A stretch of DNA of 64,000 bases from Bdellovibrionales bacterium (GTDB lineage: Bacteria > Bdellovibrionota > Bdellovibrionia > Bdellovibrionales > UBA1609). Both the position numbers and the translations under genes were made by a program. Numbering within the stretch: position 1 is the first letter of the stretch; the number at the start of each line of letters is the position of its first letter. The stretch spans positions 610,142 through 674,141 of the forward strand of contig OZ244719.1 in the NCBI GenBank assembly GCA_965219095.1, in the 5' to 3' direction. Under the pieces are notes generated by a model, which was given only the letters and a program-made list of their open reading frames with translations, ran no database searches and was not told where the DNA came from. Shown piece after piece: positions 4,547 through 23,828 of the stretch.

Positions 4547-7500
4547 TTGATGAATGAAGGAAATGAATTCGTAAGTCCAATTGCCATTGATCTTGGTGCT
4601 CAGAATACAGGCGTTTATTTTGCTCACTATCCAAAAGGTAGTGAATTAAGTATTTTAAAAAATGAAGACACTAAGGAGGGTAAAGTGTATGTTTTGGAGA
4701 AAAATTCATATACTTTGCTTATGGCTAATAGAACAGCAAAACGTCATCAGAGGCGATGTTATGATCGCCGGAAAATGGCAAAACGTCTATTTAGGTTAAT
4801 ATGGGAAAAGCATTTCGGATTCCCATGGGATAAAGATGTCCAACAAACAATTAGTTTCTTGCTCAATCGCAGAGGCTTTAGCTTTTTAACAGAAGAATAT
4901 GATCCTGAAATCTTAAGCCAATTTCCTAAAGAAGCATTTGAAAAGTTGCCAGAAGAACTAAAGCAAGAAGTTATACAGAATGACAACAGCACATATGATT
5001 TTACAAGTGCGATTCGGCATTGGATAGCGAAAGAACAAGTTAAAGAAAAGTATGAAGCTATAAATAAAAAACCAAAAGAAATTAAAGAAAAGTATGAAGC
5101 TATAAATAAAAAACCAAAAGAAATTAAAGAAAAGTATGAAACTATAAATAAAAAACCAAAAGAAATTAAAGAAATTAACAGAGAGCTATATCTAATTACA
5201 TGTACTGAAAAGTTGAAAAATTATTGCCTATTACGCAAGGAAGGAAAAGAGATAACAGATGGAAAAACAAAAAAGAAAGATACTACTTTCAAAGCATCTA
5301 GATGGTTGCTGGGTGAGTGGCAACAACGATTAAAAATACAAGGATTACCTGACGACAACAACAATGAGATCAATATAGTAAAGTTTCTGAATGAAACAAC
5401 ACCAGAACAAGTTAAAAAAATTTATGATACTATCCACCTTTACTCTCCTTCCCCTCATATCAAGAAAAAAGAACTAAAAAATTCAGAGTGGTACTTTAAT
5501 GCTGAAAAATTCAACCAAGAGGAAAACTTTGTAACTGTTGATGGTGAGCCAGACGAAAAAACTCATATTCACCACCTTGCATTCGCCTTATACAAAACCA
5601 ATGAAGAACTCACCTCTGGTAATCGTCATCGTACTAAATACTTTAAAGAAGTTCGTGAGATATTAATAAAAACAGATCACTCTCACAACTATTTGAAAAA
5701 AATCTGTACAAAGTTGCAATCTGGCGACTTTAGAGAGCTAACAGTAGACAGCCTGACCAAGCTTATTGGGCATATAAGCAATTTAGAGCTTAAACCTCTC
5801 CGAAAATATTTTAATAACGAGAAACATAAAACAAAAGATATTTGGGATGAAAAAATCCTAAATGAGATATTTGAAAATTGGATATTGAATGAGTGGAGGG
5901 TTGGAGAAAAAGACAAAGATAAATCTGATAATAGTAGCTTTTCTTACAAAGAGCTCAGAGAACTTTGGTCTAAAAAAGCTAATTCAGTAGTTAATTTTTG
6001 GCTGAATACTGAGCCTGAGTATACCACCCCCCCCTATCAAGATAACAATAATCGTCGGCCCCCTAGATGTCAAAGTTTGATTCTTAATGTTGAGTTTCTT
6101 GATAGCAAATATCCAAACTGGAAAAAATGGCTTGATAAATTAAAAGGATTAAAATCCGTCCAAAAGTATCTCGATGATTATGCAGATAACTTAAGGGAGT
6201 TAAAAAGCGGTAAGGGAAACTCTTATTTTTATAAATCTAAGGCAGGAAATTTACTTGTCAATTCTGGTCGCAGAAACATGGAAGAACTCGAGTCACGCAT
6301 TATGCAATTTATCTTTGACAGAGTCAAAGATAAAGATCCCCTTAGTCTCAACGAAATTTACAGTTATGCCAAAAAAATTAGACAAAACATTCATAAAACA
6401 AATGATAAAGGCATTAATAATTCAATAGTTGAAACAAAAAATAACTTAGAAAAGTCAATAGAAAACAGTGCTTTGCCGGATGATATGAAAATTAACCCAA
6501 ACTATGATAGAGATGATTTGTTTCCAAAAGACAGTTTTCTGCATTTAATCTGTAAATACTATAAGAATCGTCAGCGTGCTAGAGAAGGGCGTATTTTCAT
6601 TCATCCTGAATACCGTTCTGTCAAAGATCGTGGCTATGAAAACACTAAACGCTTCGACAATAAAAACAACCTATTAACTTATTGTAACCATAAGCCTCGT
6701 CAAAAGCGTTATCAGATTTTCGAGGATTTAGCCAGTGTATTACGAATTTCCCCTCTAGATCTGAAGCGGGTTGTTAATAAAAAACAAGGGAAAGACGAAA
6801 GTGATAAATTATTTAAATGGTTAAACAGTATCGATTCTTTGGAAAAAAATTGCGATCGAGCGTCTGAAGAACAGAAAGAACGCAAAGGACGTTTAAAGTC
6901 AGATATCCAGGGCATCTTTGGGTTGATATATCACAGAAAGAAAAATGAAAATCCATCTAAAAAAGAAATCGGAAATATTCTTAAAAATTCTAAAGTTAAA
7001 GATCCGCAAAAATTATATAATTTTTGTAAAAGGGCTAAGGAGCGTTGTCTAAATTTAACAACCTTTGGTTTATATGATGAATCAAGACAACAACAATGGG
7101 AAGATGATTTAAATAAAAATCCGGCTACTGCTGTTTATTTTCTCTCACAAATCAATAATATTGTCAAGGAGCGTAGTGGTAATGCCAAGACTTGTGCGGT
7201 ATGCAGTATGGATAATGCACAACGTATGCAGATCGCTGATACTATGGTTCATATTGCTAAAGCTCAACGGTTGCCAGCCATACCAACTCGCATTATTGAT
7301 GGCGCTGTTATGCGTATGGCTCGTATTGTTGGTGGTGCTATTGCTGATGATAAGTGGGAGAGGATTGGGAGAGAACTTAAATCAGATAAAAGGGTTTGCG
7401 TTCCTATTATCATTGAATCTAATCAGTTTGAGTTTGAACCTTCCAGAGAGGAACTAGTAAAATCACAAAGAATTCAAAAAAGAAGGGGAAAAGTCCCGGA

Positions 7501-9658
7501 CCCTAATCAAAGAGATCAAAGAGATCAGATTTTCAAATCTAAGGAAGAACGTATCAAGGAATCCAGTAAAGAGATATGCCCTTACACCGGGGAAAAGATC
7601 AGTAGTCATCATGGTGAAATTGATCATATAATACCTAGAACCTCTGAATGGGGCATTCTAAATGATGAATCAAATTTAATTTATGCGAGTAAAGAAGGTA
7701 ATAGACAAAAAAGTAACAAAATGTATTCACTAAAAGACTTAAAATCACAATATAAAGAAAAAATTTTTAGAACTAAAAATGATGATATAGAACAATGGAT
7801 TATTAATCAGATCTGGGACAAAGAAAGCAATAAATTTATATTTGGCAAATATCGAAATTTTTCTAACCTTACCATTGATCAACAAATTGCTTTTCGGCAC
7901 GCTTTATTCCTTAATGAAGAGCATCCCTTAAGAGGTAAGGTCATTAACGCTATAAATAATATAAACCGGACCCTTGTCAATGGAACACAGCGCTATTTTT
8001 CAGAAGTATTAGCAAATAATCTTTATAAAAAAGCCAAAAGAATTAGAAAAGAACATTTGTTATCATTTGATTACTATGAGGTAGATGCTTATTCTAATAG
8101 TGGAAATAATATTTATGATTTGCGCAGGAACTATGTTGAGGGCGAACATGAGGTAATTTCTAAATACAAAAAGGGGAAAGAGGTCCAAAAGCCTTATTCA
8201 CATTTGATAGACGCTCAACTTTCCTTTGCCTTAGCTGCTAGTGATCATCGTAATAGAGGAGGGCTTGGTATAGAAATAAGTGATGAAATTAATATGTGGT
8301 TTTTTGACAAGGATACAGGAGAAGTTCTCAAAAATTTATTTGACACTATACATGTGTCTGATGAGGGTTTTAAGCCAGAAGAATTAAATCGTAAGAAACC
8401 AAATGAAAGTTTTTGTTCTCATCGTGCGTTTACAAGAGATATGTTTTATGCTGACCGTTATCTCCCTGTTCTCTTAAAACTTGAGAGTGGAAAAGTTCAG
8501 GTAAAAATTGGCTTTGATTGGAGTAATAGTGTTAAATTAGGAATAGACACACCTAAAGGGGCAGAAAAATATTTACTAGATATCATTGATTTGCTTCCTG
8601 TATGCAATAGAACTGAACTTTTGGAGGATAAGGAATATTCTAGCTTGGAAAAATTATTTTCAGAAATAGAACAGATTTCATATTTTAATAAACAACGGCA
8701 AGAAAAAGGCTACTGTTGTATAACAGTGAACAGATCAAAACTACATGATCATTGGAGAGAAAAATACAATAGCAAAACTGGGGATTCATTTGAAGAAAAG
8801 AAATTCGTTTATAAGTATTTACATTATAAAACAGAAAAGGTGAAGCTTGATAAGCCTGAAGATTTATCAAAAAAACTGTGCGATATAAAAAAGTTTGAAG
8901 TTGAAGTTGAGAGGAAACCAATAACATTGCCAGTAAAAAAACAATGGCAAGATTGTTGGGATGCCTGGGAAAGAGAAAAAGATTTATTTAAAGATAAAGA
9001 TTTTAAAGAGTTTTTGAAAAATTATTTTAAACCACCACATACACTGTCTCACCAAAAGGTAAGAAAAGTTTTTTCCCTACCAACACTTTCTAAAGAAGGC
9101 AAGATATTAATGCGGAGAAAATCTTGGACAGGAAATTACACTTATCAGATTGTTAACGATTCTGACTCTAGGAAGGATGACAATAAACCTAATGTACCGA
9201 TAAGGAAACAAAATGGAGAACGGGGTAAAAAGCTTGCAGAGTGGGCTAAGTCAGAAAATATTATCAAGTTTAAGGACGGCTACGAGGACGGAAAACCAAT
9301 CAATCCTACTCAATGGTATAAGGTTGATAAAAAATCTTCTAAATTGCCAGACGAAATTGAGGATCTTTGGTATCGGATAAAGGATTCAACCGCTCCACTT
9401 ATAGCTATAAAGTTAGCACAAGATGGTGAAAATATTTCTAATGCCGAATTTATGGAAAATCCAATGTGTAAGCACGGTTTTAGAAAAAACGATAAACTTA
9501 AAAAATCTAAAAAGGATGTTCGTAATGAGTTTTTTGAAAAAGAGATAAAAACAAAAAAACGTGGCGCCATCATTCCTTACGAGGGGTCGAAGTATAACAA
9601 AGAGATGCAGAAGGCATTCAAAGAAGCAAGCTTAGTTGGCAAACTACCACTACCATGA
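4547..9658 (+). CDS. cas9: Type II-B CRISPR nuclease Cas9 (Csx12/FnCas9-like); ATG at 4550 is an alternative start
   Basis: RuvC-I IAIDLGAQNTG, bridge helix RTAKRHQRR, RuvC-II IIIESN, HNH EIDHIIPR..N...GN, RuvC-III SHLIDA, Zn-finger Cys (RCQS, YCNH, CAVC); followed by cas1-cas2-cas4. Confidence 0.97.
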   Translation: MMNEGNEFVSPIAIDLGAQNTGVYFAHYPKGSELSILKNEDTKEGKVYVLEKNSYTLLMANRTAKRHQRRCYDRRKMAKRLFRLIWEKHFGFPWDKDVQQTISFLLNRRGFSFLTEEYDPEILSQFPKEAFEKLPEELKQEVIQNDNSTYDFTSAIRHWIAKEQVKEKYEAINKKPKEIKEKYEAINKKPKEIKEKYETINKKPKEIKEINRELYLITCTEKLKNYCLLRKEGKEITDGKTKKKDTTFKASRWLLGEWQQRLKIQGLPDDNNNEINIVKFLNETTPEQVKKIYDTIHLYSPSPHIKKKELKNSEWYFNAEKFNQEENFVTVDGEPDEKTHIHHLAFALYKTNEELTSGNRHRTKYFKEVREILIKTDHSHNYLKKICTKLQSGDFRELTVDSLTKLIGHISNLELKPLRKYFNNEKHKTKDIWDEKILNEIFENWILNEWRVGEKDKDKSDNSSFSYKELRELWSKKANSVVNFWLNTEPEYTTPPYQDNNNRRPPRCQSLILNVEFLDSKYPNWKKWLDKLKGLKSVQKYLDDYADNLRELKSGKGNSYFYKSKAGNLLVNSGRRNMEELESRIMQFIFDRVKDKDPLSLNEIYSYAKKIRQNIHKTNDKGINNSIVETKNNLEKSIENSALPDDMKINPNYDRDDLFPKDSFLHLICKYYKNRQRAREGRIFIHPEYRSVKDRGYENTKRFDNKNNLLTYCNHKPRQKRYQIFEDLASVLRISPLDLKRVVNKKQGKDESDKLFKWLNSIDSLEKNCDRASEEQKERKGRLKSDIQGIFGLIYHRKKNENPSKKEIGNILKNSKVKDPQKLYNFCKRAKERCLNLTTFGLYDESRQQQWEDDLNKNPATAVYFLSQINNIVKERSGNAKTCAVCSMDNAQRMQIADTMVHIAKAQRLPAIPTRIIDGAVMRMARIVGGAIADDKWERIGRELKSDKRVCVPIIIESNQFEFEPSREELVKSQRIQKRRGKVPDPNQRDQRDQIFKSKEERIKESSKEICPYTGEKISSHHGEIDHIIPRTSEWGILNDESNLIYASKEGNRQKSNKMYSLKDLKSQYKEKIFRTKNDDIEQWIINQIWDKESNKFIFGKYRNFSNLTIDQQIAFRHALFLNEEHPLRGKVINAINNINRTLVNGTQRYFSEVLANNLYKKAKRIRKEHLLSFDYYEVDAYSNSGNNIYDLRRNYVEGEHEVISKYKKGKEVQKPYSHLIDAQLSFALAASDHRNRGGLGIEISDEINMWFFDKDTGEVLKNLFDTIHVSDEGFKPEELNRKKPNESFCSHRAFTRDMFYADRYLPVLLKLESGKVQVKIGFDWSNSVKLGIDTPKGAEKYLLDIIDLLPVCNRTELLEDKEYSSLEKLFSEIEQISYFNKQRQEKGYCCITVNRSKLHDHWREKYNSKTGDSFEEKKFVYKYLHYKTEKVKLDKPEDLSKKLCDIKKFEVEVERKPITLPVKKQWQDCWDAWEREKDLFKDKDFKEFLKNYFKPPHTLSHQKVRKVFSLPTLSKEGKILMRRKSWTGNYTYQIVNDSDSRKDDNKPNVPIRKQNGERGKKLAEWAKSENIIKFKDGYEDGKPINPTQWYKVDKKSSKLPDEIEDLWYRIKDSTAPLIAIKLAQDGENISNAEFMENPMCKHGFRKNDKLKKSKKDVRNEFFEKEIKTKKRGAIIPYEGSKYNKEMQKAFKEASLVGKLPLP
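5040..5174 (+). repeat. In-frame 42-bp tandem repeat x3 in cas9 (KEKYE[A/T]INKKPKEI)
   Basis: Units at 5040, 5082 and 5124 (one substitution in the third), plus a 9-bp partial. Confidence 0.95.
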
Positions 9659-10611
9659 GACATCTTGTTATTGCAGACTATGGAACATTTTTAGGATTAG
9701 ATAATCAACGCCTTGCTATTCGGCAAAAGGAAGAAGTTCAATATTATCCTCTGAACCGTCTTTGCACTATATCCGTTGCTAAAAATGGGATCAGTTTTTC
9801 TAGTGATTTAGTGGAATCGTTAAGTGCACGAGGAATTAAATTGTTTTTTCTTGATTTTCGTGGTGTTCCTCACTCAGCAATTTTAGGACAATCTCAACAT
9901 GGCGTTGTTGCAGTAAGGATGGCACAAGTGGCTTTTTGCCAGAGCGATACAATGACGCTTTCTAGAAAAATTATTTCTGCAAAAATTAAAAATCAACGTG
10001 CAGTACTAAACTACTTAGATAAGTACCACAGAAATACATTATTGAAGTCTGCATCTGAGGAACTATTACGAAACTCAACTGAAGCCCAACGTGCTAAAAA
10101 TATTGAAACTTTATTAGGCTTAGAGGGAGCTAGTGCTAATGCTTATTTTCAAAGCTTACGACAAGCTCAGTTGTTCTCATCTTCTTTTAAAAAACGTGAG
10201 GGAAGGGGGAGTCAGGAAATCAATAATTCAATGCTTAACTTAGGTTATGCGATATTAAGTAGCTATGTTCTTAATGCGATCGTTAATGCCGGGTTAGAAC
10301 CTTATCTTGGTATTATACACACCATTAGACCTGGCAAAATGGCATTGGTATTGGATATAATGGAGGAATACCGAGCATGGGTTGTTGATCGTATTGTAAT
10401 CAAATTGCGTTCACAGAGTAAAGGAATGACAGTTCTGAGTACAGATCTAAAAAAAGTACTAATTAAGGAAATACAAAATACATGTGCTAAAAGATACCTT
10501 TACAAACAAAAGAAGCATAAATTAGAGCATATTATTCAAAGACAAGTGTATCGATTATGTGGTCACTTTTATGGTGAAAAAAGTTATAAACCTTATCTAT
10601 TTAAGTGGTGA
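9655..10611 (+). CDS. cas1: CRISPR integrase Cas1
   Basis: LLGLEG..A..YF, NSMLNLGY, GIIH, LVLDIMEEYR motifs; overlaps the cas9 stop (ATGA). Confidence 0.97.
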   Translation: MRHLVIADYGTFLGLDNQRLAIRQKEEVQYYPLNRLCTISVAKNGISFSSDLVESLSARGIKLFFLDFRGVPHSAILGQSQHGVVAVRMAQVAFCQSDTMTLSRKIISAKIKNQRAVLNYLDKYHRNTLLKSASEELLRNSTEAQRAKNIETLLGLEGASANAYFQSLRQAQLFSSSFKKREGRGSQEINNSMLNLGYAILSSYVLNAIVNAGLEPYLGIIHTIRPGKMALVLDIMEEYRAWVVDRIVIKLRSQSKGMTVLSTDLKKVLIKEIQNTCAKRYLYKQKKHKLEHIIQRQVYRLCGHFYGEKSYKPYLFKW

Positions 10612-10620
10612 TATATATAA

Positions 10621-10923
10621 ATGAAAAGCTATCTGTTACGACAAGAATATCTGGTCAGTTACGATATACAAGACAACAAGATACGCCATCGTATCTTTAA
10701 AGAATTAAATAGATATGGTCTCACATCAGTTCAAAAGTCTGTTTTTTGGGGTTATTTAACTTTTGCAGAACTAGAAGCAGTAAGACGTCATTTAGAGTAT
10801 AACCTTAGGAGGACAGATAAGGCTTTTATAACACATACTAACTTCAATGGTCGAGGGCGTAGTTATTTTGTAGGTCATGAGAAAAATGATTTTGAAGATT
10901 GGGAAGAAACCTATGTCATCTAA
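10621..10923 (+). CDS. cas2: Cas2
   Basis: YLVSYDIQDNKIR...VQKSVF. Confidence 0.97.
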   Translation: MKSYLLRQEYLVSYDIQDNKIRHRIFKELNRYGLTSVQKSVFWGYLTFAELEAVRRHLEYNLRRTDKAFITHTNFNGRGRSYFVGHEKNDFEDWEETYVI

Positions 10924-11494
10924 AATGGAAGTTCCGGTAAACTTAATACGTCAATGGTGTTATTGCCCTAGAAAAGTTTATTACTTTGAATTGACAGATT
11001 TTAAAGTAGAACATCCATCTTGGATAAAACAGGGGAGAAAATTTCACAAGCTAGAAGAGAAGTTGTGGCGACGCCGGAATGTTTCTAGGTTTAATTTAAA
11101 AAATGGCCATACTTATCACAATTTAATGATGAGAGATAGCGACAAGGGACTCCATGGTATTGTTGATATGGCAATTGAAACTGAGGCAGCAGTTTACGCT
11201 GTCGAGTTTAAAATTTCAGCAAGGATTAGAAAAAGAGGTGACATCTTACAATTGACAGCTTATTCTATGCTATTAGAAAAACACTTTAATAAACCAAGTT
11301 CAGTTGGATTTCTTTTAGGCAAGGGGAGGGTTTTACACACAATTGATATTGACGAAGATAAACGTAAAGAAGTGATGGAAGTAGTAGATAAAATAAGACA
11401 GATACTGCAGAGAGGATTAAAACCAGAATCCAGCGCTAGCGTAGCTCAATGTTGTTCCTGTGAGTACTTCAATTTTTGTAATGACCGCCTGTAA
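10913..11494 (+). CDS. cas4: Cas4 (RecB-like nuclease with 4Fe-4S cysteines); longest ORF begins at 10877
   Basis: YCPR, GIVD, EFK, QLTAY, CxxCxYxxxC. Confidence 0.95.
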   Translation: MSSKMEVPVNLIRQWCYCPRKVYYFELTDFKVEHPSWIKQGRKFHKLEEKLWRRRNVSRFNLKNGHTYHNLMMRDSDKGLHGIVDMAIETEAAVYAVEFKISARIRKRGDILQLTAYSMLLEKHFNKPSSVGFLLGKGRVLHTIDIDEDKRKEVMEVVDKIRQILQRGLKPESSASVAQCCSCEYFNFCNDRL

Positions 11495-11578: not shown

Positions 11579-11610
11579 ACAAAAAAACCGCTTTCAAGCG
11601 GTTTTTTTGT
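11579..11610. terminator. Bidirectional intrinsic terminator (cas operon on +, tracrRNA on -)
   Basis: acaaaaaaaccgct-ttca-agcggtttttttgt, perfect 14-bp arms with T-runs on both strands. Confidence 0.9.
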
Positions 11611-11705
11611 TTAAAATGAAAGCAGACGTGATAAAGATATCAGAGGTCCGTTCAAAATGCTTTTAGATGATTACAGTGCATTAGTAATCTGCTATACTTA
11701 TGGTG
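11579..11705 (-). ncRNA. tracrRNA (type II-B); 5' end uncertain, could extend to about 11730
   Basis: Minus strand cataagtatagcagattactaatgcactgtaatc (anti-repeat, 11669-11702) then atctaaaagcattttgaacggacctctg...cacgtctg, matching the recalled F. novicida tracrRNA core; ends at a terminator. Confidence 0.92.
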
Positions 11706-11712
11706 ATGTTAT

Positions 11713-11774
11713 CACAAAAAACTTCTTTCGCAAAATATTATATTTCGGTGCAAAGACTTCGTTTGCGAAAGAAG
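11713..11774 (-). terminator. Probable terminator of minus-strand CRISPR transcripts
   Basis: 13-bp arms cttctttcgcaaa (11722-11734) / tttgcgaaagaag (11762-11774), followed on minus by T6. Confidence 0.6.
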
Positions 11775-11823
11775 AGACGCCTTTTTTTCTCTAATTACCA
11801 GAAATATAAGAGAAATTTAGGGT

Positions 11824-13463
11824 GTTTCATTAGTATAACAAATTACTTAGCAACTGAAACCAATCTTCTAAGTACAGGGTACACAGACACAAAACACTGA
11901 GTCAGGTTTCATTAGTATAACAAATTACTTAGCAACTGAAACTATCTTCTAAGCTTTATACAGTATATTTACATAGACTCAGTTTCATTAGTATAACAAA
12001 TTACTTAGCAACTGAAACGTCCTAATTAGCCCTTTTTGTAGTCTTGGTTTCTTTTACAGAGTTTCATTAGTATAACAAATTACTTAGCAACTGAAACTCT
12101 TCGTCAGGAAAACCAAGACAGGCATCACCTAGTTTCATTAGTATAACAAATTACTTAGCAACTGAAACTAATCACGCTCACGTGTTTGAGGGAGATTTTA
12201 AGTTTCATTAGTATAACAAATTACTTAGCAACTGAAACTCCCAGCCTTTAGACGTGTTAGGGAAGTCAGCTTCGTTTCATTAGTATAACAAATTACTTAG
12301 CAACTGAAACATCGTAGCTTCCCCTTTGCCAGGCTTTAAAATTTGGTTTCATTAGTATAACAAATTACTTAGCAACTGAAACAGATAACTTGGTCAGAAC
12401 TGGAAGACATGGTAGAGTTTCATTAGTATAACAAATTACTTAGCAACTGAAACCTTAATTGTTCTCATATTTACTCTTCTCTTTCTTTGTTTCATTAGTA
12501 TAACAAATTACTTAGCAACTGAAACTCTTCAGCGGGAAAACCAAGACAGGCATCACCTAGTTTCATTAGTATAACAAATTACTTAGCAACTGAAACCTAA
12601 TTGTGTAAAATAAATCGTTCCTATTACAGGAGTTTCATTAGTATAACAAATTACTTAGCAACTGAAACAGTAAAGTTCGAAGACGATAAGAAAGGAGTAA
12701 TAAGTTTCATTAGTATAACAAATTACTTAGCAACTGAAACGTGTAACAGTCTTTGCAATTTTCAGTCGAGTTACGTTTCATTAGTATAACAAATTACTTA
12801 GCAACTGAAACCAGCACTTACTAGTAACCAGCACTGACTACATATAAGTTTCATTAGTATAACAAATTACTTAGCAACTGAAACCACATCGTTATGTTCA
12901 AATTTTTTGTTTGTTATTGGTTTCATTAGTATAACAAATTACTTAGCAACTGAAACATGTCCAAAGGACGGGGCATTTTACTAACTTTGCAGTTTCATTA
13001 GTATAACAAATTACTTAGCAACTGAAACGCCAAGTTCTAAAATTGTTGGCTTAACAAATTTAGAGTTTCATTAGTATAACAAATTACTTAGCAACTGAAA
13101 CATGTCCAAAGGACGGGGCATTTTACTAACTTTGCAGTTTCATTAGTATAACAAATTACTTAGCAACTGAAACGCCAAGTTCTAAAATTGTTGGCTTAAC
13201 AAATTTAGAGTTTCATTAGTATAACAAATTACTTAGCAACTGAAACATGTCCAAAGGACGGGGCATTTTACTAACTTTGCAGTTTCATTAGTATAACAAA
13301 TTACTTAGCAACTGAAACGCCAAGTTCTAAAATTGTTGGCTTAACAAATTTAGAGTTTCATTAGTATAACAAATTACTTAGCAACTGAAACCTATAAACT
13401 TCATCTTGAATTTTTTTATTCATATTGTTTCATCAGTACAACAAATTACTTAGCAAGTAAAGT
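11824..13463 (-). CRISPR. CRISPR array: 22 identical 37-bp repeats, 1 degenerate terminal repeat (13427-13463), 22 spacers of 33-45 bp; crRNA sense is the minus strand
   Basis: Plus-strand repeat gtttcattagtataacaaattacttagcaactgaaac; its reverse complement GTTTCAGTTGCT.. resembles the Francisella repeat and pairs with the tracr anti-repeat. Confidence 0.98.
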
Positions 13464-13730
13464 GTACTAACGGTTAAATTGTCAAAGAACACACCCTTCA
13501 TTTGAAGAGTCTATAGTATTTTGTACTTTAGCATTGATTTTTTCTTGTTTCAAATAGTTTTTAGTATTTTTTATCATATTTTCTGAGGCAAATTTTTCAT
13601 TTATTCTGTATTCTTTCTCTTCAAAAATTGAGCTTATGAAAATTTCAGAAAATTGGTGTTAGGAATCCGTCTTTTTTCGCATTTCGTGCTAAATCTAATG
13701 AAGTGTGCATTTATCCCTCAAAATAACTGC

Positions 13731-13791
13731 AACTCGATCATTACCGCTCTATACAAAATCGTCCTTTGTATAGAGCGGTAATGGTCGAGTT
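13731..13791. repeat. Long inverted repeat (27-bp arms, one G-T pair, 7-nt loop)
   Basis: aactcgatcattaccgctctatacaaa-atcgtcc-tttgtatagagcggtaatggtcgagtt. Confidence 0.9.
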
Positions 13792-13983: not shown

Positions 13984-14916
13984 ATGATAAGAACTGTTTT
14001 TATAATGGTTGTGGTTTTAGCCTTATCTTTTCAGAAAGATGTTTTTGCTTCTGCCATTCTAAGTCAAGATAGTGTAAATCAAGACAGCATAAAAAAAATT
14101 ACGGAGTACTTGGCAAATTACAAGTCTGAGTACTGGGAATTCTCTTCGCAAGCCGAATCTCTTATCCCTATTCGACCACCACAGGTTGTTATAGGTTCTC
14201 CTATTGATCCAAACCATTACTTTGCTAAAAATTCTGTTTTGATCATTTCGGTTAGGGAGGAAGGGACGGGTATTTGTTCTGGGTCTATTCTTACAAAACA
14301 TTTCATACTTACGGCAGCCCATTGTCTTGAATCTGTTAACGAAGCTTATATTTTTACAAACAATCTTATTTCTAGGAAAGATATTATCAAGGAGATCAAA
14401 AAAGGAATAGATGGAAAGTTTTTTAAGGTTACAAAAAACTCCTTTGAAATTAGTCCATGTTATCATCCCAGTAATAATCTTGCATGTGATATTGCAATGA
14501 TTTTTGTTCCTGCAGCTTTAAATAAACATGATGCACAAGTCACTTCTGTAAAGCTTGCTAGTTCTGGGTCTGGGCCTTATATTTTGACTGGTTATGGGAC
14601 GCCACCGACAACAAACAGGCCGTCTAGCGATGAGAATGAGGCATGGGTATTAATATTAAGAGGAGTAGAAGTTTCCCTCTTTTATAAGGACCATGCTATT
14701 ATTTATACCCATAGAAGAAGATTTGTTAGGTACGTTGGTGTTGTAAAAGGTGACTCAGGGGGCCCCATGTACGAAACAAGGGATGGCAGTTATGTGCAAG
14801 TAGGAGTCAATGTTGCTATGTCTACTCAGCATAGTATTTCAGTAAGAGTCGATAGACATCTATCTTGGATGCAAAGCACTATAGAGAGTCGCATGGTACC
14901 CCTAGCGTTGGATTAA
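13984..14916 (+). CDS. Secreted trypsin-like (S1) serine protease
   Basis: Signal peptide; CSGS, TAAHC, DIA, GDSGGP catalytic-triad motifs. Confidence 0.9.
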   Translation: MIRTVFIMVVVLALSFQKDVFASAILSQDSVNQDSIKKITEYLANYKSEYWEFSSQAESLIPIRPPQVVIGSPIDPNHYFAKNSVLIISVREEGTGICSGSILTKHFILTAAHCLESVNEAYIFTNNLISRKDIIKEIKKGIDGKFFKVTKNSFEISPCYHPSNNLACDIAMIFVPAALNKHDAQVTSVKLASSGSGPYILTGYGTPPTTNRPSSDENEAWVLILRGVEVSLFYKDHAIIYTHRRRFVRYVGVVKGDSGGPMYETRDGSYVQVGVNVAMSTQHSISVRVDRHLSWMQSTIESRMVPLALD

Positions 14917-14960
14917 GTTTCAGTTGCTAGCTAGAGGGGTATTTGTTATGTTAATAAATC
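14917..14960 (+). repeat. Orphan degenerate CRISPR repeat in crRNA sense, abutting the protease stop codon
   Basis: gtttcagttgcta (13/13 to the repeat 5' end) + gctagaggggt (replaces agta) + atttgttatgttaataaatc (16/20 to the repeat 3' end). Confidence 0.7.
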
Positions 14961-15445
14961 TGGTGGTTCCTTTTTGGTTCTTTCGTTAGGGCAGTCAGTA
15001 TGGTTTTTCATTCCTTATATATAAAGGCAAATAAAAAAGAAAGAGTTTTTTCATACCTTCCTCTAAATTGTGAAAGTCTCATTTTGGCTAAGTCCCAAAA
15101 ACTTTTAACTCCATTGATATGGTTTTTAACTGTTTTTTCAGCCTTCGAGAATTCATTTTTTCCGTGTGAACTTGATAATGCTTTTTAAAACTCATATTAA
15201 GCCCGTCATAGGCTTTAAAGACATCTGTAAAGAAATTTTCTTAAAGTCAGTTGAAAAAAAAGTTTTTTATATCACAATAAAGGGTGATATGTTTTTAAAA
15301 AATATAGAAAAAGACAGACGATTCCCAAAGCTATTCAGACATCTATTCAAGCGACTTTCAAAGGAATTCAAGAACTGACAAAAGCTCAAAAAGAGACAGT
15401 GGTTGTAGAAGTGAAGATCGCATTAAGCTCTAATATAATGGAAAT

Positions 15446-16807
15446 CTAAGGCTTCAGGTAAGGGGACCATTTAGGAGTTTCATAATGGTGACGATCAAAA
15501 GTGATTCTTCTTACATACCCACCATCTGATGACATAAGATAAAGTTGTTTGTTTGTTGTATGCCGATCGCTGGCAAACACAATGAAACGACCATCAGGAG
15601 AAAAAGAAGGTGATGCATGATGAGCTGCTCTTCCGTTTTTCTTTACATAGCTTGTTAGTTTCTTAATTTGCTTTGTAGCCAGAGCTAAAGAATAAATGTC
15701 ATAATGAGCTTTTTGGTAGCTAGCAAACACAATGGTTTTGCCGTCAGGAGACCATACAGGATTAGAATTGTAACGACCAGCAAAAGTTAGTCTTTCGACT
15801 CTTCTTCTAGCTAAAATATCGGCCATATAAATCATAGGTTTTCCTCCTCTATTGGAAGAAAAAACCAAATGTCTTCCATCAGAGGAAATGTCTGGCTCTA
15901 AATTCAAAGTATGAGAAGGTCTTGTGATGATGGGGTTGAGGGTTCGAGTTCTTAAGTTCATTCTGTAAATATGAGCTCCTCCTCTTTTCGAGAGTGTGTA
16001 GTAAATGTACTTTCCTGTGGGATCAAAAACGGCTCCTGAATTCATACCTTTATGATGGGAGATTAATTTTGTTTGTTTTGTTTTTAAATCTAATAAAAAA
16101 AGATCAGGATTAAAAACTCCAGCTCTTTTATGTTTCACGTAAGCTGTAAAAGCAATTTTATCTCCCTTTGGAGACCAAGCAGGAGACAAGGAAAGAGATC
16201 TAAATTTTGTACTTGTAGCTTTTTCAAGGTTCTCTCCGTTCCAGTCCAAGGTATAAATTCCTTTTTTTCCTCTTACTTTCACTGTAGCAACTATTTTTGT
16301 AGAAAAAATACTTTTCTTTCCTGTGAGAGCTTTAATAAGATCATCACAAAAACGATCTGCTATTTTTTTAAAATGAGTTTGTTTGACTTTGTAGATTCTT
16401 CCTAAGGCTAATTTTCCAGAGCTTACATAATAAGCATAAATTTCTAATTGTAATTGATCGCCCCTTGTTCTATAAGTTCCTCTGATAAGTAGATGTGCTT
16501 TAAGCACACGCCAGCTCTCAAAATCAAAACCACGTCTATCTTCCGATAAAGGTCTAGGACTGACTTTTCTTACATCTTCTATAAAACTTTTAGGATCAAT
16601 CAAACGAAAGAACCCTGAAATATAAAGATGGCTCCTGATTATTTTGTAAACCTTTTCTCCGTAATGACTTCTTCTTCCTTGATTGTTGAACTTAGGTAAG
16701 GCCAAAGAGGCCTGGCCTTTTTTAGCATGGCCTACATTAATAGATATTTTTTCACAAACAGCCTGAAACGAAAAACAAAAGAAGAATAAAAACGCAATAT
16801 ATTTTAT
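15446..16807 (-). CDS. tolB: TolB beta-propeller protein; N-terminus extended to a putative ATA start
   Basis: PD40 repeats (SPAWSPKG, PVWSPDG, PSFSPDG); in-frame signal peptide upstream of the TTG at 16705; last gene of tolQRA. Confidence 0.9.
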   Translation of the reverse strand: MKYIAFLFFFCFSFQAVCEKISINVGHAKKGQASLALPKFNNQGRRSHYGEKVYKIIRSHLYISGFFRLIDPKSFIEDVRKVSPRPLSEDRRGFDFESWRVLKAHLLIRGTYRTRGDQLQLEIYAYYVSSGKLALGRIYKVKQTHFKKIADRFCDDLIKALTGKKSIFSTKIVATVKVRGKKGIYTLDWNGENLEKATSTKFRSLSLSPAWSPKGDKIAFTAYVKHKRAGVFNPDLFLLDLKTKQTKLISHHKGMNSGAVFDPTGKYIYYTLSKRGGAHIYRMNLRTRTLNPIITRPSHTLNLEPDISSDGRHLVFSSNRGGKPMIYMADILARRRVERLTFAGRYNSNPVWSPDGKTIVFASYQKAHYDIYSLALATKQIKKLTSYVKKNGRAAHHASPSFSPDGRFIVFASDRHTTNKQLYLMSSDGGYVRRITFDRHHYETPKWSPYLKP

Positions 16808-19552: not shown

Positions 19553-21812
19553 TCATTTGATTTCCTTACAATAGTGAGTTCTTACAAAAGAATTAAAATG
19601 TTTAAAAGAATCAAAGGACAGATAGCTACTATAATCGGAAAATGTTTGTAATATAGTATGGGAGATTCTATCGCGCACTAGTCTTACGAGATTTTCATCT
19701 TCCTTTTCTAAGTTTTGACTTACTCTGCAGTTTGTCTCATTTTCCTCCTTAGGAAGAGAGGATGGAAAATACTCTTGAAAAAACTTACCTATATTATTCA
19801 AAGTAATCCACAGGATGTAGTCTTGACTCTCAAAATGGCTTGGTAGGTGTTCTTGTTTTTCTACAAAGCCACAAATGTAATTTTTAAAGAAAGCACCATC
19901 TTTCAGAGGATCTGATGAAAAATGAGAGTAGTCTTCTTGTTGTGAGTAGCCTTTTTCTACATAGGCCACAAAATCTCTTATAGAGGAGTTAATGTTTCTT
20001 TCAAATTCCATGAAGCACTGATCTCCATCCTCTCTTTTATTTATTTTTTTGTAAAGAGGTTTTAGTACATAGTCCATGTAGGCATCTATTTCCACCATGT
20101 AAGACAGAGCTGCTGTTGTTTTCTTATAACGAGAAAGAGTATGATCCTCAAAAGGAATTTGTCTTTCGTCTTTGTTTTCATATTCAAAAAGACTTAGATT
20201 ATCCTTGCTTTCTCCAAAAAGATGAGGAATGACCATTTTATTTAAAAAATTTTGGTAGTCATCAAAATGAGTTTCAAAAAAAGGCCTAAAAGCTACTTCT
20301 GAAATATGCTTTTGCCACCAACAATTAAATCGCCTTTCAATATAATCATTGGTATTACCAAAATTACTTGGATCTGGGTTAACAAAATCACAGCCTTCTA
20401 TGAAACCTGACTCTAGTTTTGCAACAAAAGGCTTTAGCTTATCAAGACCGTTATGGAGAAGTTTTTGAGAAAGATTGTTGAAATCATATTTTTTGTGGTT
20501 TAATTTCATAGACATAATCGATCTTTTCAGTCCTTTGCAGAAAAGCTTTCCTCCCTCAACAATCTTAGGGGGCAGAAACTCCTTTCTTATAGAAGTTGTG
20601 TCCACGAGAGTGTCTTCAGGCTTGACTCCGCAGAGCATGCTAAAGAAAGCTTTTTCTGAGAAAAAATCTGTTTCAAATTGAGCCATATTAAAACCTTTTA
20701 TAGAATCCTTCATGGATTTAATTCCTGTAAGCTGAAACAAAAGAGAATCATCTAAATTTTCTGATAATTCTGATAAATTGGGTAAAAGTTCAGAAGAGGC
20801 CTTATCCTTGTCTATAGGATGCCAATCTTTCATTTTTTTATAATAATCATCATGCATGTACTGTAAAGTTTGCTCTGCAGGATGAGAGGTAAAGTGGGTG
20901 GAAAAAGACTGTCCAAAACCATTTGATGCTACAAGAAATTTTCGAAAGATACTTTCATCAATTTTTTGAAATGAAAATTTCATTCTTGACTGAACAATAG
21001 GATAATCTAATATTTCATAGAGTTCATAAAATAGACAATGCTCTGAGAAAAAATCCTCTTTTTGACAAGCTTGAAACAGAGCTTCTCGATTTTGAATTCT
21101 TTCTAAGATTTCAAAAGCTAAAAGCCAATCTTCTTTGCTTTCAGAAGAAAGGTATTTTTCTAAGCTTTCAATTTCTTTTATTTTTACAAGTTGTTTTTGA
21201 GGAAGTTTTCGAGATTCAGGAAAATTTCGTATAAAAAGATTCTTTTTATGAGTCTTAAAAGGGGTTTGTTTATTTCTCCAACGACATTCATTAGCCTTTA
21301 AATACTCTCTTGCTATTTTAATACGGCACTCAGTTTCGTAAATATGAGGATAAGAGATATTTATTTGTATTTCAGAAAAAGACTCTTTATTTACACATGA
21401 AGTCCTTACTTTCTTTTCAAAAAACTGCTCTTTCATTCTAGTGGCTATAGGGAAAAGTTTTTTTGCTTCTTCTATGGTCATTTTAAAAGACAAGTCTTTA
21501 GAGTCCTCGCTTGTTTTTCTTACAGAGCAAGGGTTGCCCTCTCCTCCGTCGTTTTCCCTCAGAAGTTGTAGTGGAAAATAAGACATTTTTTCAGGTACCA
21601 TATCCATATCTTGATACCTTGCTTCAGATTCTCTTAATCGATCCTCTCGTATTTTAATGACAATTTCTGTATAGGCTTTTTTAGTAAACTCAGCTCTATC
21701 CATAGACCAAACAAGATCTTTTTCCCATTCTGCTCTTCTTATGTACAACATAGCTGTCATATAATCGATCCAAGCTTTTGAGGCCTCTGAAAATTCTTTT
21801 ATAGCTTGAGCT
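19553..21812 (-). pseudogene. Large hypothetical protein, 5'-truncated at an inverted-duplication junction
   Basis: 735-aa ORF whose frame stays open upstream of ATG 21760 up to the junction at about 21812. Confidence 0.6.
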
Positions 21813-22477
21813 TTTTCTGCAAAGGACTGAAAAGATCGATTATGTCTATGAAATTAAACCACAAAAAATATGATTTCAACAATCTTTCTCAAAAACTTCT
21901 CCATAACGGTCTTGATAAGCTAAAGCCTTTTGTTGCAAAACTAGAGTCAGGTTTCATAGAAGGCTGTGATTTTGTTAACCCAGATCCAAGTAATTTTGGT
22001 AATACCAATGATTATATTGAAAGGCGATTTAATTGTTGGTGGCAAAAGCATATTTCAGAAGTAGCTTTTAGGCCTTTTTTTGAAACTCATTTTGATGACT
22101 ACCAAAATTTTTTAAATAAAATGGTCATTCCTCATCTTTTTGGAGAAAGCAAGGATAATCTAAGTCTTTTTGAATATGAAAACAAAGACGAAAGACAAAT
22201 TCCTTTTGAGGATCATACTCTTTCTCGTTATAAGAAAACAACAGCAGCTCTGTCTTACATGGTGGAAATAGATGCCTACATGGACTATGTACTAAAACCT
22301 CTTTACAAAAAAATAAATAAAAGAGAGGATGGAGATCAGTGCTTCATGGAATTTGAAAGAAACATTAACTCCTCTATAAGAGATTTTGTGGCCTATGTAG
22401 AAAAAGGCTACTCACAACAAGAAGACTACTCTCATTTTTCATCAGATCCTCTGAAAGATGGTGCTTTCTTTAAAAAT
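21813..22477 (+). repeat. 665-bp inverted duplicate of 19880-20544
   Basis: ORF 21806-22534 reproduces FCKGLKRS...DGAFFKN of the 735-aa protein; both segments measure 665 bp. Confidence 0.95.
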
Positions 22478-22988
22478 AGATTCTATGTTTTTCTCCAGAT
22501 TTTTATCCTTTTCAAGCTTTCCCCTGGTTTTTAAAAAACTATAAAAACCAGAACGAGATCCTCTTAATAATTCGCAAATGCGAAGCACTGGATGCCCTTT
22601 CTCTTTTACATAAAACATAGCCTTAAATCTCATTTCAGGATTTCCTTTGAAAAAAAAGCCGCTGCCTCTTTCAATATACCTACACTCCGCCTCTCATAGA
22701 CCAGCTCCTTTTTTAACCTCTTTATTTCCTCCAATGCCGAAGCCAAGTCATGGGAAGCTTGTCTTTCTACTTCAGGCTTTAGAAAACGCTTCCAAGAGCT
22801 TATCACTTGGAAATTTCTCAGTCCTAGCTTCTCTGAGGCTTCCTTTGCACCTATTTCCTCTGCCAATTCAATGGCTTGCTTTTTAAACTCTTCCGAGTAC
22901 TGTTTTACTTTTTCCATTCTTTCTTTTACCTCCATTTTATGGAGACTTTAAGAGAAAATTGACTGTCCGCAGAAACAGGGGAAGTTCA
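22469..22988 (-). mobile_element. Truncated IS3-family copy (left IR, orfA 22630-22935, start of orfB)
   Basis: Near-identical to the corresponding part of 58233-59483; IR ctgtccgcagaaacaggggaagttca. Confidence 0.92.
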
Positions 22989-22995
22989 AAGACCT

Positions 22996-23828
22996 TAGGC
23001 GTGTTGAATATTTATAAAGATTGTAAAAAGCTCATAACAAAGGGAGGTGTTATGTTAAGAAAAGTTTTAACAGATTCTATGTGGAAGGATCTGGAAGCTA
23101 TTATAAGAGAGAAAGGCTGTTATCATTCAGCAAACAATAGAAATGTTATGGAAGCAATTTTATGGAAATTACGCACAGGCAGTCCGTGGCGTGATATTCC
23201 TGAACAGTTCTGTCCTTGGAAGAGAGCATATAATCGCTTTAATAGGTGGGCACAAAAAGGGTTATGGAATGATTTTTTTTTACTTTACAAGAAGAAGTTG
23301 ATACAGAGTGGGTGTCCATCGACGGAAGTTACGTATCGGTTCATCAGCATGCTAGTGGAGCTCGGCGTGGAGAAAGTCGTGCTGTGGGAAAATCTAGAGG
23401 TGGATCCACAACAAAAATACACATGGCCTCTGATGCGCATGGAAATCCGCTCTGTTTTAAAATCACTGGGAGTGAAGTGCACGACAGTCAAGTTGCAGGT
23501 GATTTAATGATGAGTTTCATAGTGAGTATTTGATTGCTGACAAGGCCTATGACTCGGATGAGATACGAGATAAGGCTCGTAGTAAGAAGGTAAAGCCTGT
23601 GATACCGAGACGAAAAAATAGCAAAAAGAAAAATAAAGATTTTGATCGTCATATCTATAAATCTCGACATCAGATAGAAAACCTTTTTGCTCGTCTTAAG
23701 CATTTTAGAGGTATTGCTACTCGATTTGAAAAGCTTGCTAGAAATTTCAAAGCTATCTATCTATAGCATATATGTTTATTTGGCTTAAACTTCAAAGTAA
23801 AGGTCCAGTCAAATGAGGACAGGCTCTA
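22996..23828 (+). mobile_element. IS5-family element with frameshifted, partly deleted transposase (23052-23766)
   Basis: AILWKLRTGSPWRDIP, SIDGSYV..HQH, ADKAYDS, RHQIENLFARLKHFRGIATRFEK in three frames; ends approximate. Confidence 0.85.

Follow-up and report, generated by a model that had tools for sequence, protein, structure and literature searches.

A type II-B Cas9 clade without the two NGG-reading arginines, and spacer targets that point to an NGA motif

How does a Cas9 choose its targets when the residues that read its protospacer adjacent motif (PAM) are missing? The question is raised by a type II-B CRISPR locus of a Bdellovibrionales bacterium, which lies in a 64,000-nt stretch of contig OZ244719.1 (assembly GCA_965219095.1, positions 610,142 to 674,141, forward strand; hereafter the window). 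Type II-B Cas9s are prized for their high fidelity, and the characterised enzymes that we checked, namely FnCas9, PsCas9, and LpnCas9, need G at PAM position 3. In FnCas9 of Francisella novicida (PDB 5B2O, 9EHF), R1585 reads the guanine at position 2 (G2) and R1556 that at position 3 (G3) (PMC11213958, PMC12231574); the enzyme reads NGG and, weakly, NGA, and the changes R1556A, R1556Q, and R1556T kill its activity (PMC11213958). The original prediction for the window was that its Cas9 lacks both arginines, keeps its catalytic motifs, and would use a different or relaxed PAM. Our analyses indicate, at the level of sequence, that a rebuilding of the PAM readers is real and clade-wide in an otherwise ordinary type II-B system, and the flanks of spacer targets lend moderate, indirect support to NGA.

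At the position of R1556, the window Cas9 has alanine (residues are counted from the ATG at 4550). In a phmmer comparison with PDB sequences, DSTAPLIAIKL of the window protein aligned with NNSRPKVRVKL of FnCas9 and with NNSAPKVRVKL of its RHA mutant (PDB 5B2Q). The assignment of Ala1615 to this position is secure in the alignments, and the arginine of FnCas9-like NGG readers is absent there. The counterpart of R1585 is alignment-dependent. phmmer placed FMENPMCKHGF on FMNHSLLKSRY of FnCas9, making G1643 the equivalent residue, and a first MAFFT alignment, in which K1641 was set on the same preceding lysine, agrees with this register. In a MAFFT alignment of 104 rows (A5), most rows that keep the arginine were slid by five, with HGFRK on HPLLK, and the R1585 column then falls on D1648, likewise not an arginine. 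The G1643 register is favoured because Arg-keeping intermediates with the same cysteine (PLCKRRF, PLCRGRF, NICKPR, PLCKAK, PLCRLR, ELCKGR, and PLCKPK) have arginine or lysine three residues later in 7 of 8 distinct rows. The best register thus puts glycine at the R1585 position and the alternative puts aspartate there. No other arginine was placed at either position by sequence alignment, and the predicted absence of both readers stands.

The change is not confined to the window. In A5, the R1556 column holds Arg in 62 rows, Ala in 31, and other residues in 11; after removal of 8 near-duplicate or short rows, 96 homologs remained (28 Ala, 58 Arg, and 10 other). The motif C(K/Q/R)HG(F/L/Y/S)R occurred in 22 of the 28 Ala rows, usually along with a basic insertion, and in none of the 58 Arg rows or the 10 others. 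Alanine together with the motif is, as aligned here, a clade-wide change and not a private decay of the window Cas9, which refines the original prediction. One supported set of 36 rows in a quick tree took in 26 of the 28 Ala rows together with 7 Arg rows, and the tree is therefore no proof of a single origin. Named hosts of motif-bearing loci are metagenome-assembled genomes of Gammaproteobacteria, Thermodesulfobacteriota, and Spirochaetota; this distribution across several phyla implies horizontal spread. A search for the clade locus in Joint Genome Institute metagenomes found none. Alignments A3 and A5 included 23 of 36 loci; the omitted ones were 11 with very different PAM-interacting (PI) tails, one truncated locus, and one with a misassigned open reading frame (ORF).

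Within the motif, H1642 and R1645, both invariant in the clade, are candidate new PAM readers. The original prediction had also described a Lys-rich insertion of about 20 aa after it. Such an insertion exists relative to FnCas9, which the window protein exceeds by about 18 aa (13 Lys or Arg among the 36 residues from G1643 to E1678), but it is only about 8 aa above the family norm. The corresponding segment has a median of 28 aa (net +1) in Arg-keepers and 46 aa (net +5) in the clade, and that of the window Cas9 is shorter than in most clade members. Upstream, the pair S1540-R1541 in the linker between the WED and PI domains is kept, with serine and arginine each present in 21 of 23 clade rows. 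Its FnCas9 counterparts are S1473/R1474, the first of which is reported to contact G2.

Across an alignment of 22 homologs, E956, D1025, H1026, N1042, H1218, and D1221 are invariant and D14 is nearly so, in keeping with the prediction that the RuvC and HNH sites are preserved; the catalytic roles of these seven residues are assigned by motif. An AlphaFold model of residues 1281-1702, built from the 104-row alignment, reached a predicted local distance difference test score (pLDDT) of 94.8; a single-sequence fold reached only 31.6. The predicted WED/PI model matched FnCas9 with a Foldseek E of 3e-27 and a VIA Z of 30.5 (rmsd, root-mean-square deviation, 3.4 over 382 aligned residues), a comparison at the level of aligned ranges and not of residue pairs, and the R1556 and R1585 registers come from sequence alignment. 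The WED/PI fold, the catalytic residues, the trans-activating CRISPR RNA (tracrRNA), and the array are all intact.

Reading a PAM from spacer targets requires the orientation of the array. The tracrRNA and the minus-strand repeat form a predicted duplex of -27.2 kcal/mol (300 shuffles: -11.4 +/- 2.6, minimum -21.2). The CRISPR RNA therefore corresponds to the minus strand, and PAMs lie to the left of each spacer on the plus strand.

Most usable targets belong to L022, the locus nearest to the window Cas9 by tree path in the quick tree, whose Cas9 shares with it 61% identity across the final 149 aa, the alanine, and CKHGFRK. In its host genome a Mu-like prophage is present twice, the copies differing in their tape-measure genes. 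We compared its 71 spacers with 160 kb around both prophage copies, using 785 other spacers as background. The best matches had 4, 7, 8, 10, and 11 mismatches; the background gave none at ≤8, three at 9, and seven at 10. The match with 11 mismatches (flank AGT) is at background level and was left uncounted. The other flanks read CGA (4 mismatches), TGA (7), CAC (8), and CGA (10). The sequence of a fifth L022 spacer codes for a portion of a 3TM holin (PF11351); this spacer matched prophages in two family members, with 10 and 12 mismatches and flanks CGA and TGA. Together, five prophage-gene targets gave four NGA and no NGG. At the protein level, score ratios of at least 0.8 were obtained for 4 of the 71 L022 spacers and 3 of 758 others. 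The L022 array itself is interrupted by a repeated element resembling an insertion sequence (L022:22350-23940; L057-L059, L163).

Given that these targets are diverged homologs, we also asked which codon NGG would demand in the original target. At the holin site NGG demands proline, found in none of 51 distinct homologs; serine is present in 43, encoded by TCN in 32 (NGA) and by AGY in 11 (RCT). At the first tape-measure site it demands glycine, found in 0 of 6 homologs (E, R, K, A, Q, and R), and at the second an xCC codon (Ala, Thr, Ser, or Pro), again in 0 of 6 (V, V, Q, Q, V, and I). The L022 array gave only low-complexity matches in plasmids and phages, and its matches in genome G076 were repeats. 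No terminase or tape-measure match was found in G000 and G062-G065, and no tape-measure relative in IMG/VR.

As a control, the Arg-keeping system L055 had two targets, flanked by TGG (5 mismatches) and CGG (a 2-nt deletion in the target's seed), i.e., NGG in both. This control is small, two sites from one system. Since NGG appeared in the same strand and register, it supports the orientation and argues against slippage. The control arrays L029 and L044 yielded no target, and arrays L028, L030, L032, and L040, searched against own or family genomes, yielded no usable one; a match of an L028 spacer to a transposase-B-like ATPase (14 mismatches) was too distant for use. In another Arg-keeping system, L045, the spacer at 20953 agrees at 32 of 34 nt with a gene on the chromosome of the system's own host (L263:967-1000), which by eye resembles citrate synthase; the GG there lies under the last two spacer bases, and this ambiguous self-match was set aside.

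For the window array, positions 11700-13101 (17 of 18 distinct spacers) were matched to contigs of one study (three runs, possibly with the source sample among them). Five of the 17 spacers matched non-array contigs: spacer 1 over 28 nt with 1 difference, spacer 4 over 26 nt with 2, spacer 5 over its whole length with 1, spacer 7 over 29 nt with 3, and spacer 9 over 18 nt with none. The matches of spacers 1, 4, and 7 end 10, 3, and 6 nt before the PAM end, and their PAM-side flanks lie outside the displayed segments, leaving spacer 5 as the one usable flank. It reads TGTGCC, i.e., a TGT PAM with G at position 4. A single open frame runs through flank and spacer: a His codon has its first base at PAM position 2, which fixes G2, and an Ala codon has its last base at position 3, so that NGA, NGG, and NGT differ only silently; phage escape may have occurred through this silent site. 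On the side away from the PAM, the flanks show no consensus (TGG for spacer 7, GCT for spacer 5, and TAA for spacer 4).

These matches to co-occurring contigs suggest that the array is in use and bear at most indirectly on RNA-guided DNA cleavage. Spacers 4 and 10 fall on one site with the same ends and differ at seed positions 6-9, the pattern of escape followed by re-acquisition at a fixed site, and the target contigs differ from the spacers at the PAM-proximal end, as expected under selection. Elsewhere, window spacers found no target in their own genome (best matches at shuffle level), among INPHARED phages, in 60 and 108 relatives (matches were repeats), or in 18 terminase-bearing regions of family members. 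Three pattern scans of IMG/VR gave 16 chance matches, one judged unrelated, and none, respectively, and the base composition of spacer ends revealed no PAM remnant.

Altogether, the six usable clade flanks have G at position 2 in five, A at position 3 in four, and G at position 3 in none. This bears out the expectation of a different or relaxed PAM and adds that G2 is apparently still read although R1585 is gone. The evidence leans towards a clade whose PAM would require G at position 2, leave G dispensable at position 3, and favour A there (5'-NGA-3', perhaps NGW), with the window Cas9 as an active type II-B enzyme; our confidence in NGA is moderate, the targets being few and diverged. The chances seem evenly balanced for the wider proposal that a clade of long FnCas9-like Cas9s in host-associated marine bacteria reads NGA by means of the His/Arg motif plus a basic hairpin, a solution independent of the two-arginine code. 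In the most likely, though unproven, mechanism, G2 would be read by H1642 or R1645 with the help of the retained S1540, and the A at position 3 would be recognised by K/Q1641 or by way of contacts to its complementary T. The basic insertion (and Lys at the E1603 position in most members) might make up for the hold on the backbone that went with the two arginines, a role resembling that of the added basic residues that rescue the engineered RHA FnCas9.

Several observations weigh against NGA. All evidence for it comes from one relative, L022, and from diverged homologs of its targets instead of the original ones; one of its flanks reads CAC, and the holin serine could be encoded by AGY, giving RCT. 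The second tape-measure site (10 mismatches) is within the DNA background (10 of 785 spacers at ≤10), with a protein ratio of only 0.63, and was retained because its seed is perfect and its peptide is conserved in frame. The only clean flank of the window enzyme is TGT, and the silent change makes NGA, NGG, and NGN all compatible with it; the partial match of spacer 9, flanked by CAAC, is mismatched at the base adjoining the PAM and unusable. Besides its shorter insertion, the window Cas9 departs from most of the clade at the positions of G1243, E1449, and E1603, with M, E, and E against mostly T, Q, and K. The preference of acquisition may also be narrower than that of interference.

A relaxed PAM (NG or YG) with position 3 unread, a natural counterpart of RHA, would fit TGT directly, and position 1 of all six flanks is C or T, as in the YG read by RHA (PMC11213958), which has the same substitution as A1615. 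Against it, A follows G2 in each of the four L022 flanks that keep G2, and the changes that rescue RHA are absent, E1429 and E1516 being kept in the window Cas9; we regard it as unlikely, though as the most serious competitor of NGA. It is improbable that the clade still reads NGG, with R1645 and K1641/K1646 taking both guanines and the other flanks reflecting escape or drift. Although R1645 is invariant in the clade and stands two residues from the R1585 column, itself alignment-dependent, and although targets that persist have been selected to escape (at spacer 5 a change from TGG to TGT is silent) and the characterised type II-B enzymes checked read NGG or NRG, at three L022 sites the codon required by NGG is absent from every homolog, and G3 is missing from all six usable clade flanks against NGG at both control sites.

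The basic insertion might instead read a PAM that is longer or shifted (NNNGG, say, or NGA with downstream bases), which would also account for the CAC exception. GG occupies positions 4-5 in three of the four resident-prophage flanks of L022 (CGAGG, TGAGG, and CACGG), and G stands at position 4 of the window flank. This pattern was spotted after the fact in GC-rich DNA, and it is broken by the second tape-measure site, CGACA, where C at position 4 is imposed by a conserved Val codon, and by both holin homologs (CGACG and TGACG), so that we give it slightly less credence still. Very improbable, finally, is an enzyme weak or dead for cutting, in a locus that is decaying or only binds DNA, whether as in FnCas9 R1556A or through a private 42-nt triplication in its N-terminal lobe. 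The inactivity of the R1556 mutants and three abnormally long leader-side spacers would suit it; the change is, however, common to at least 22 intact homologs, whose arrays hold as many as 71 spacers, the catalytic residues are kept, and target divergence is concentrated at the end where selection would place it. NGA with G2 still read remains our preferred interpretation.

Known systems place the clade in context. The window locus shares with FnCas9 the order cas9-cas1-cas2-cas4-tracrRNA-array, a tracrRNA matching the Rfam model FtrA, a long recognition lobe (PF21069), a WED/PI fold (Z 28.8-30.5), and a PI scaffold that aligns unambiguously up to R1556; it differs by Ala/Gly at R1556/R1585, the new HG(F)R motif, the basic insertion, about 31% identity in WED/PI, and an inferred PAM of NGA rather than NGG. 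RHA FnCas9 (E1369R/E1449H/R1556A), which reads YG slowly (PMC11213958), keeps R1585 and has basic or His gains at 1369 and 1449, whereas the window Cas9 has no R1585 and Glu at both positions; only the alanine is common. Two positions altered in the enFnCas9 variants (NRG/NGR), G1243 and E1603, naturally hold Thr in 17 of 23 and Lys in 20 of 23 clade members, respectively, but Met and Glu in the window Cas9 itself. PsCas9 (PDB 8UMF) is also type II-B and similar in WED/PI fold (Z 13.6-16.3), but it is a short enzyme with about 21% identity in that region and reads NGG, with G at position 3, through two arginines, R1316/R1369 (PMC11544209). LpnCas9, another short type II-B enzyme, has a PAM given as NRGNN with G at position 3 in 100% (PMC7606464). 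A survey counted only 453 type II-B spacers (PMC8482600), and the available part of PMC13622844 adds nothing on PAMs.

FnCas9 changes at R1556 aimed at NGA or NGT gave dead enzymes (PMC11213958). A natural clade without both arginines, apparently targeting NGA, would show how the fold gets re-specified and supply ready candidates; if the reading is true, it is a natural non-NGG type II-B specificity that single R1556 substitutions failed to create. Literature on type II-B PAMs and Protein2PAM, covered by title or abstract start and with most subscription papers and patents outside coverage, contained nothing on such a clade, which is no proof that the clade is unpublished.

In 11 related type II-B Cas9s (L021, L024, L027, L031, L034, L046, L047, L050, L051, L052, and L054; C-termini at about 14700-15600), the PI tails are no longer alignable with the R1556/R1585 scaffold and are of several distinct types. 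They are candidates for PI swaps with further new PAMs; if so, type II-B would count as one more reservoir of PAMs still to be explored. Other non-Arg forms at the R1556 position (L039:13769-15079; P0087; P0038; P0050) comprise Ala where the HG motif is missing, Ala next to a retained CKPK, and Ser with CQH.

Table 1 Features of the type II-B locus and of its Cas9 (window coordinates)
Feature	Position	Strand	Description
cas9, type II-B (Csx12)	4550..9658	+	1702 aa from ATG at 4550; in-frame TTG at 4547; matches to TIGR03031, PF21069, HNH_4, FnCas9
In-frame 42-nt tandem triplication	5034..5174	+	14-aa unit x3; Cas9 N-terminal lobe
S1540-R1541	9167..9172	+	WED/PI-linker pair aligned to FnCas9 DSR; kept (alignment)
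A1615	9392-9394	+	Aligned with FnCas9 R1556 (reader of G3); gapless alignment
Clade motif C1640-K-H-G-F-R-K1646	9467..9487	+	In the favoured register, G1643 (9476-9478) aligned with FnCas9 R1585 (reader of G2)
Lys/Arg-rich insertion and following helix of PI domain	9482..9580	+	Model pLDDT 94-97
cas1	9655..10611	+	PF01867, TIGR00287
cas2	10621..10923	+	Profile matches
cas4	10925..11494	+	PF01930, TIGR00372
tracrRNA	11581..11703	-	Anti-repeat ~11703-11669; terminator-like hairpin at 3' end
CRISPR array	11824..13463	-	22 identical 37-nt repeats and 1 degenerate repeat; 22 spacers, 18 distinct
Spacer 5	12169..12201	-	Sole window spacer with full-length target and visible PAM-side flank
Degenerate repeat	13427-13463	-	5' end of minus-strand array transcript

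The locus is otherwise typical (Table 1). The window Cas9 scored 573.6 bits against TIGR03031 (cut-off 399.4) and is therefore type II-B; it matched FnCas9 with E=0, and the adjoining genes include cas1, cas2, and cas4 but no csn2. The tracrRNA covers the whole FtrA model with 56 bits (E 2.7e-6), a score under the gathering score of 134. The 14-aa unit triplicated in the Cas9 N-terminal lobe is present in at most one copy in each of 15 homologs checked. The position of the degenerate repeat is that of the small CRISPR-Cas-associated RNA (scaRNA) in Francisella; no self-target was found. Promoter-like sites lie upstream of this repeat at 13600 and 13553, overall not above chance.

The three leader-side spacers (11861-11905, 11943-11981, and 12019-12060) are 45, 39, and 42 nt long and the remaining ones 33-36 nt; among 226 clade spacers only one other reaches 39 nt, and the abnormal lengths possibly reflect faulty Cas4 trimming. 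Spacers 1 and 2 have a common 10-nt word at the PAM-proximal end, and at the leader-distal end a two-spacer unit occurs three times (12957-13391). Downstream of the array is a near-perfect hairpin of about 23 bp (13733-13789), where an Rfam miRNA match is spurious. Farther away, in the regions 19553-22534 and 22630-23507, a 735-aa ORF is immediately followed by a duplicate of its 3' part (21806-22534), with transposase-like ORFs adjoining.

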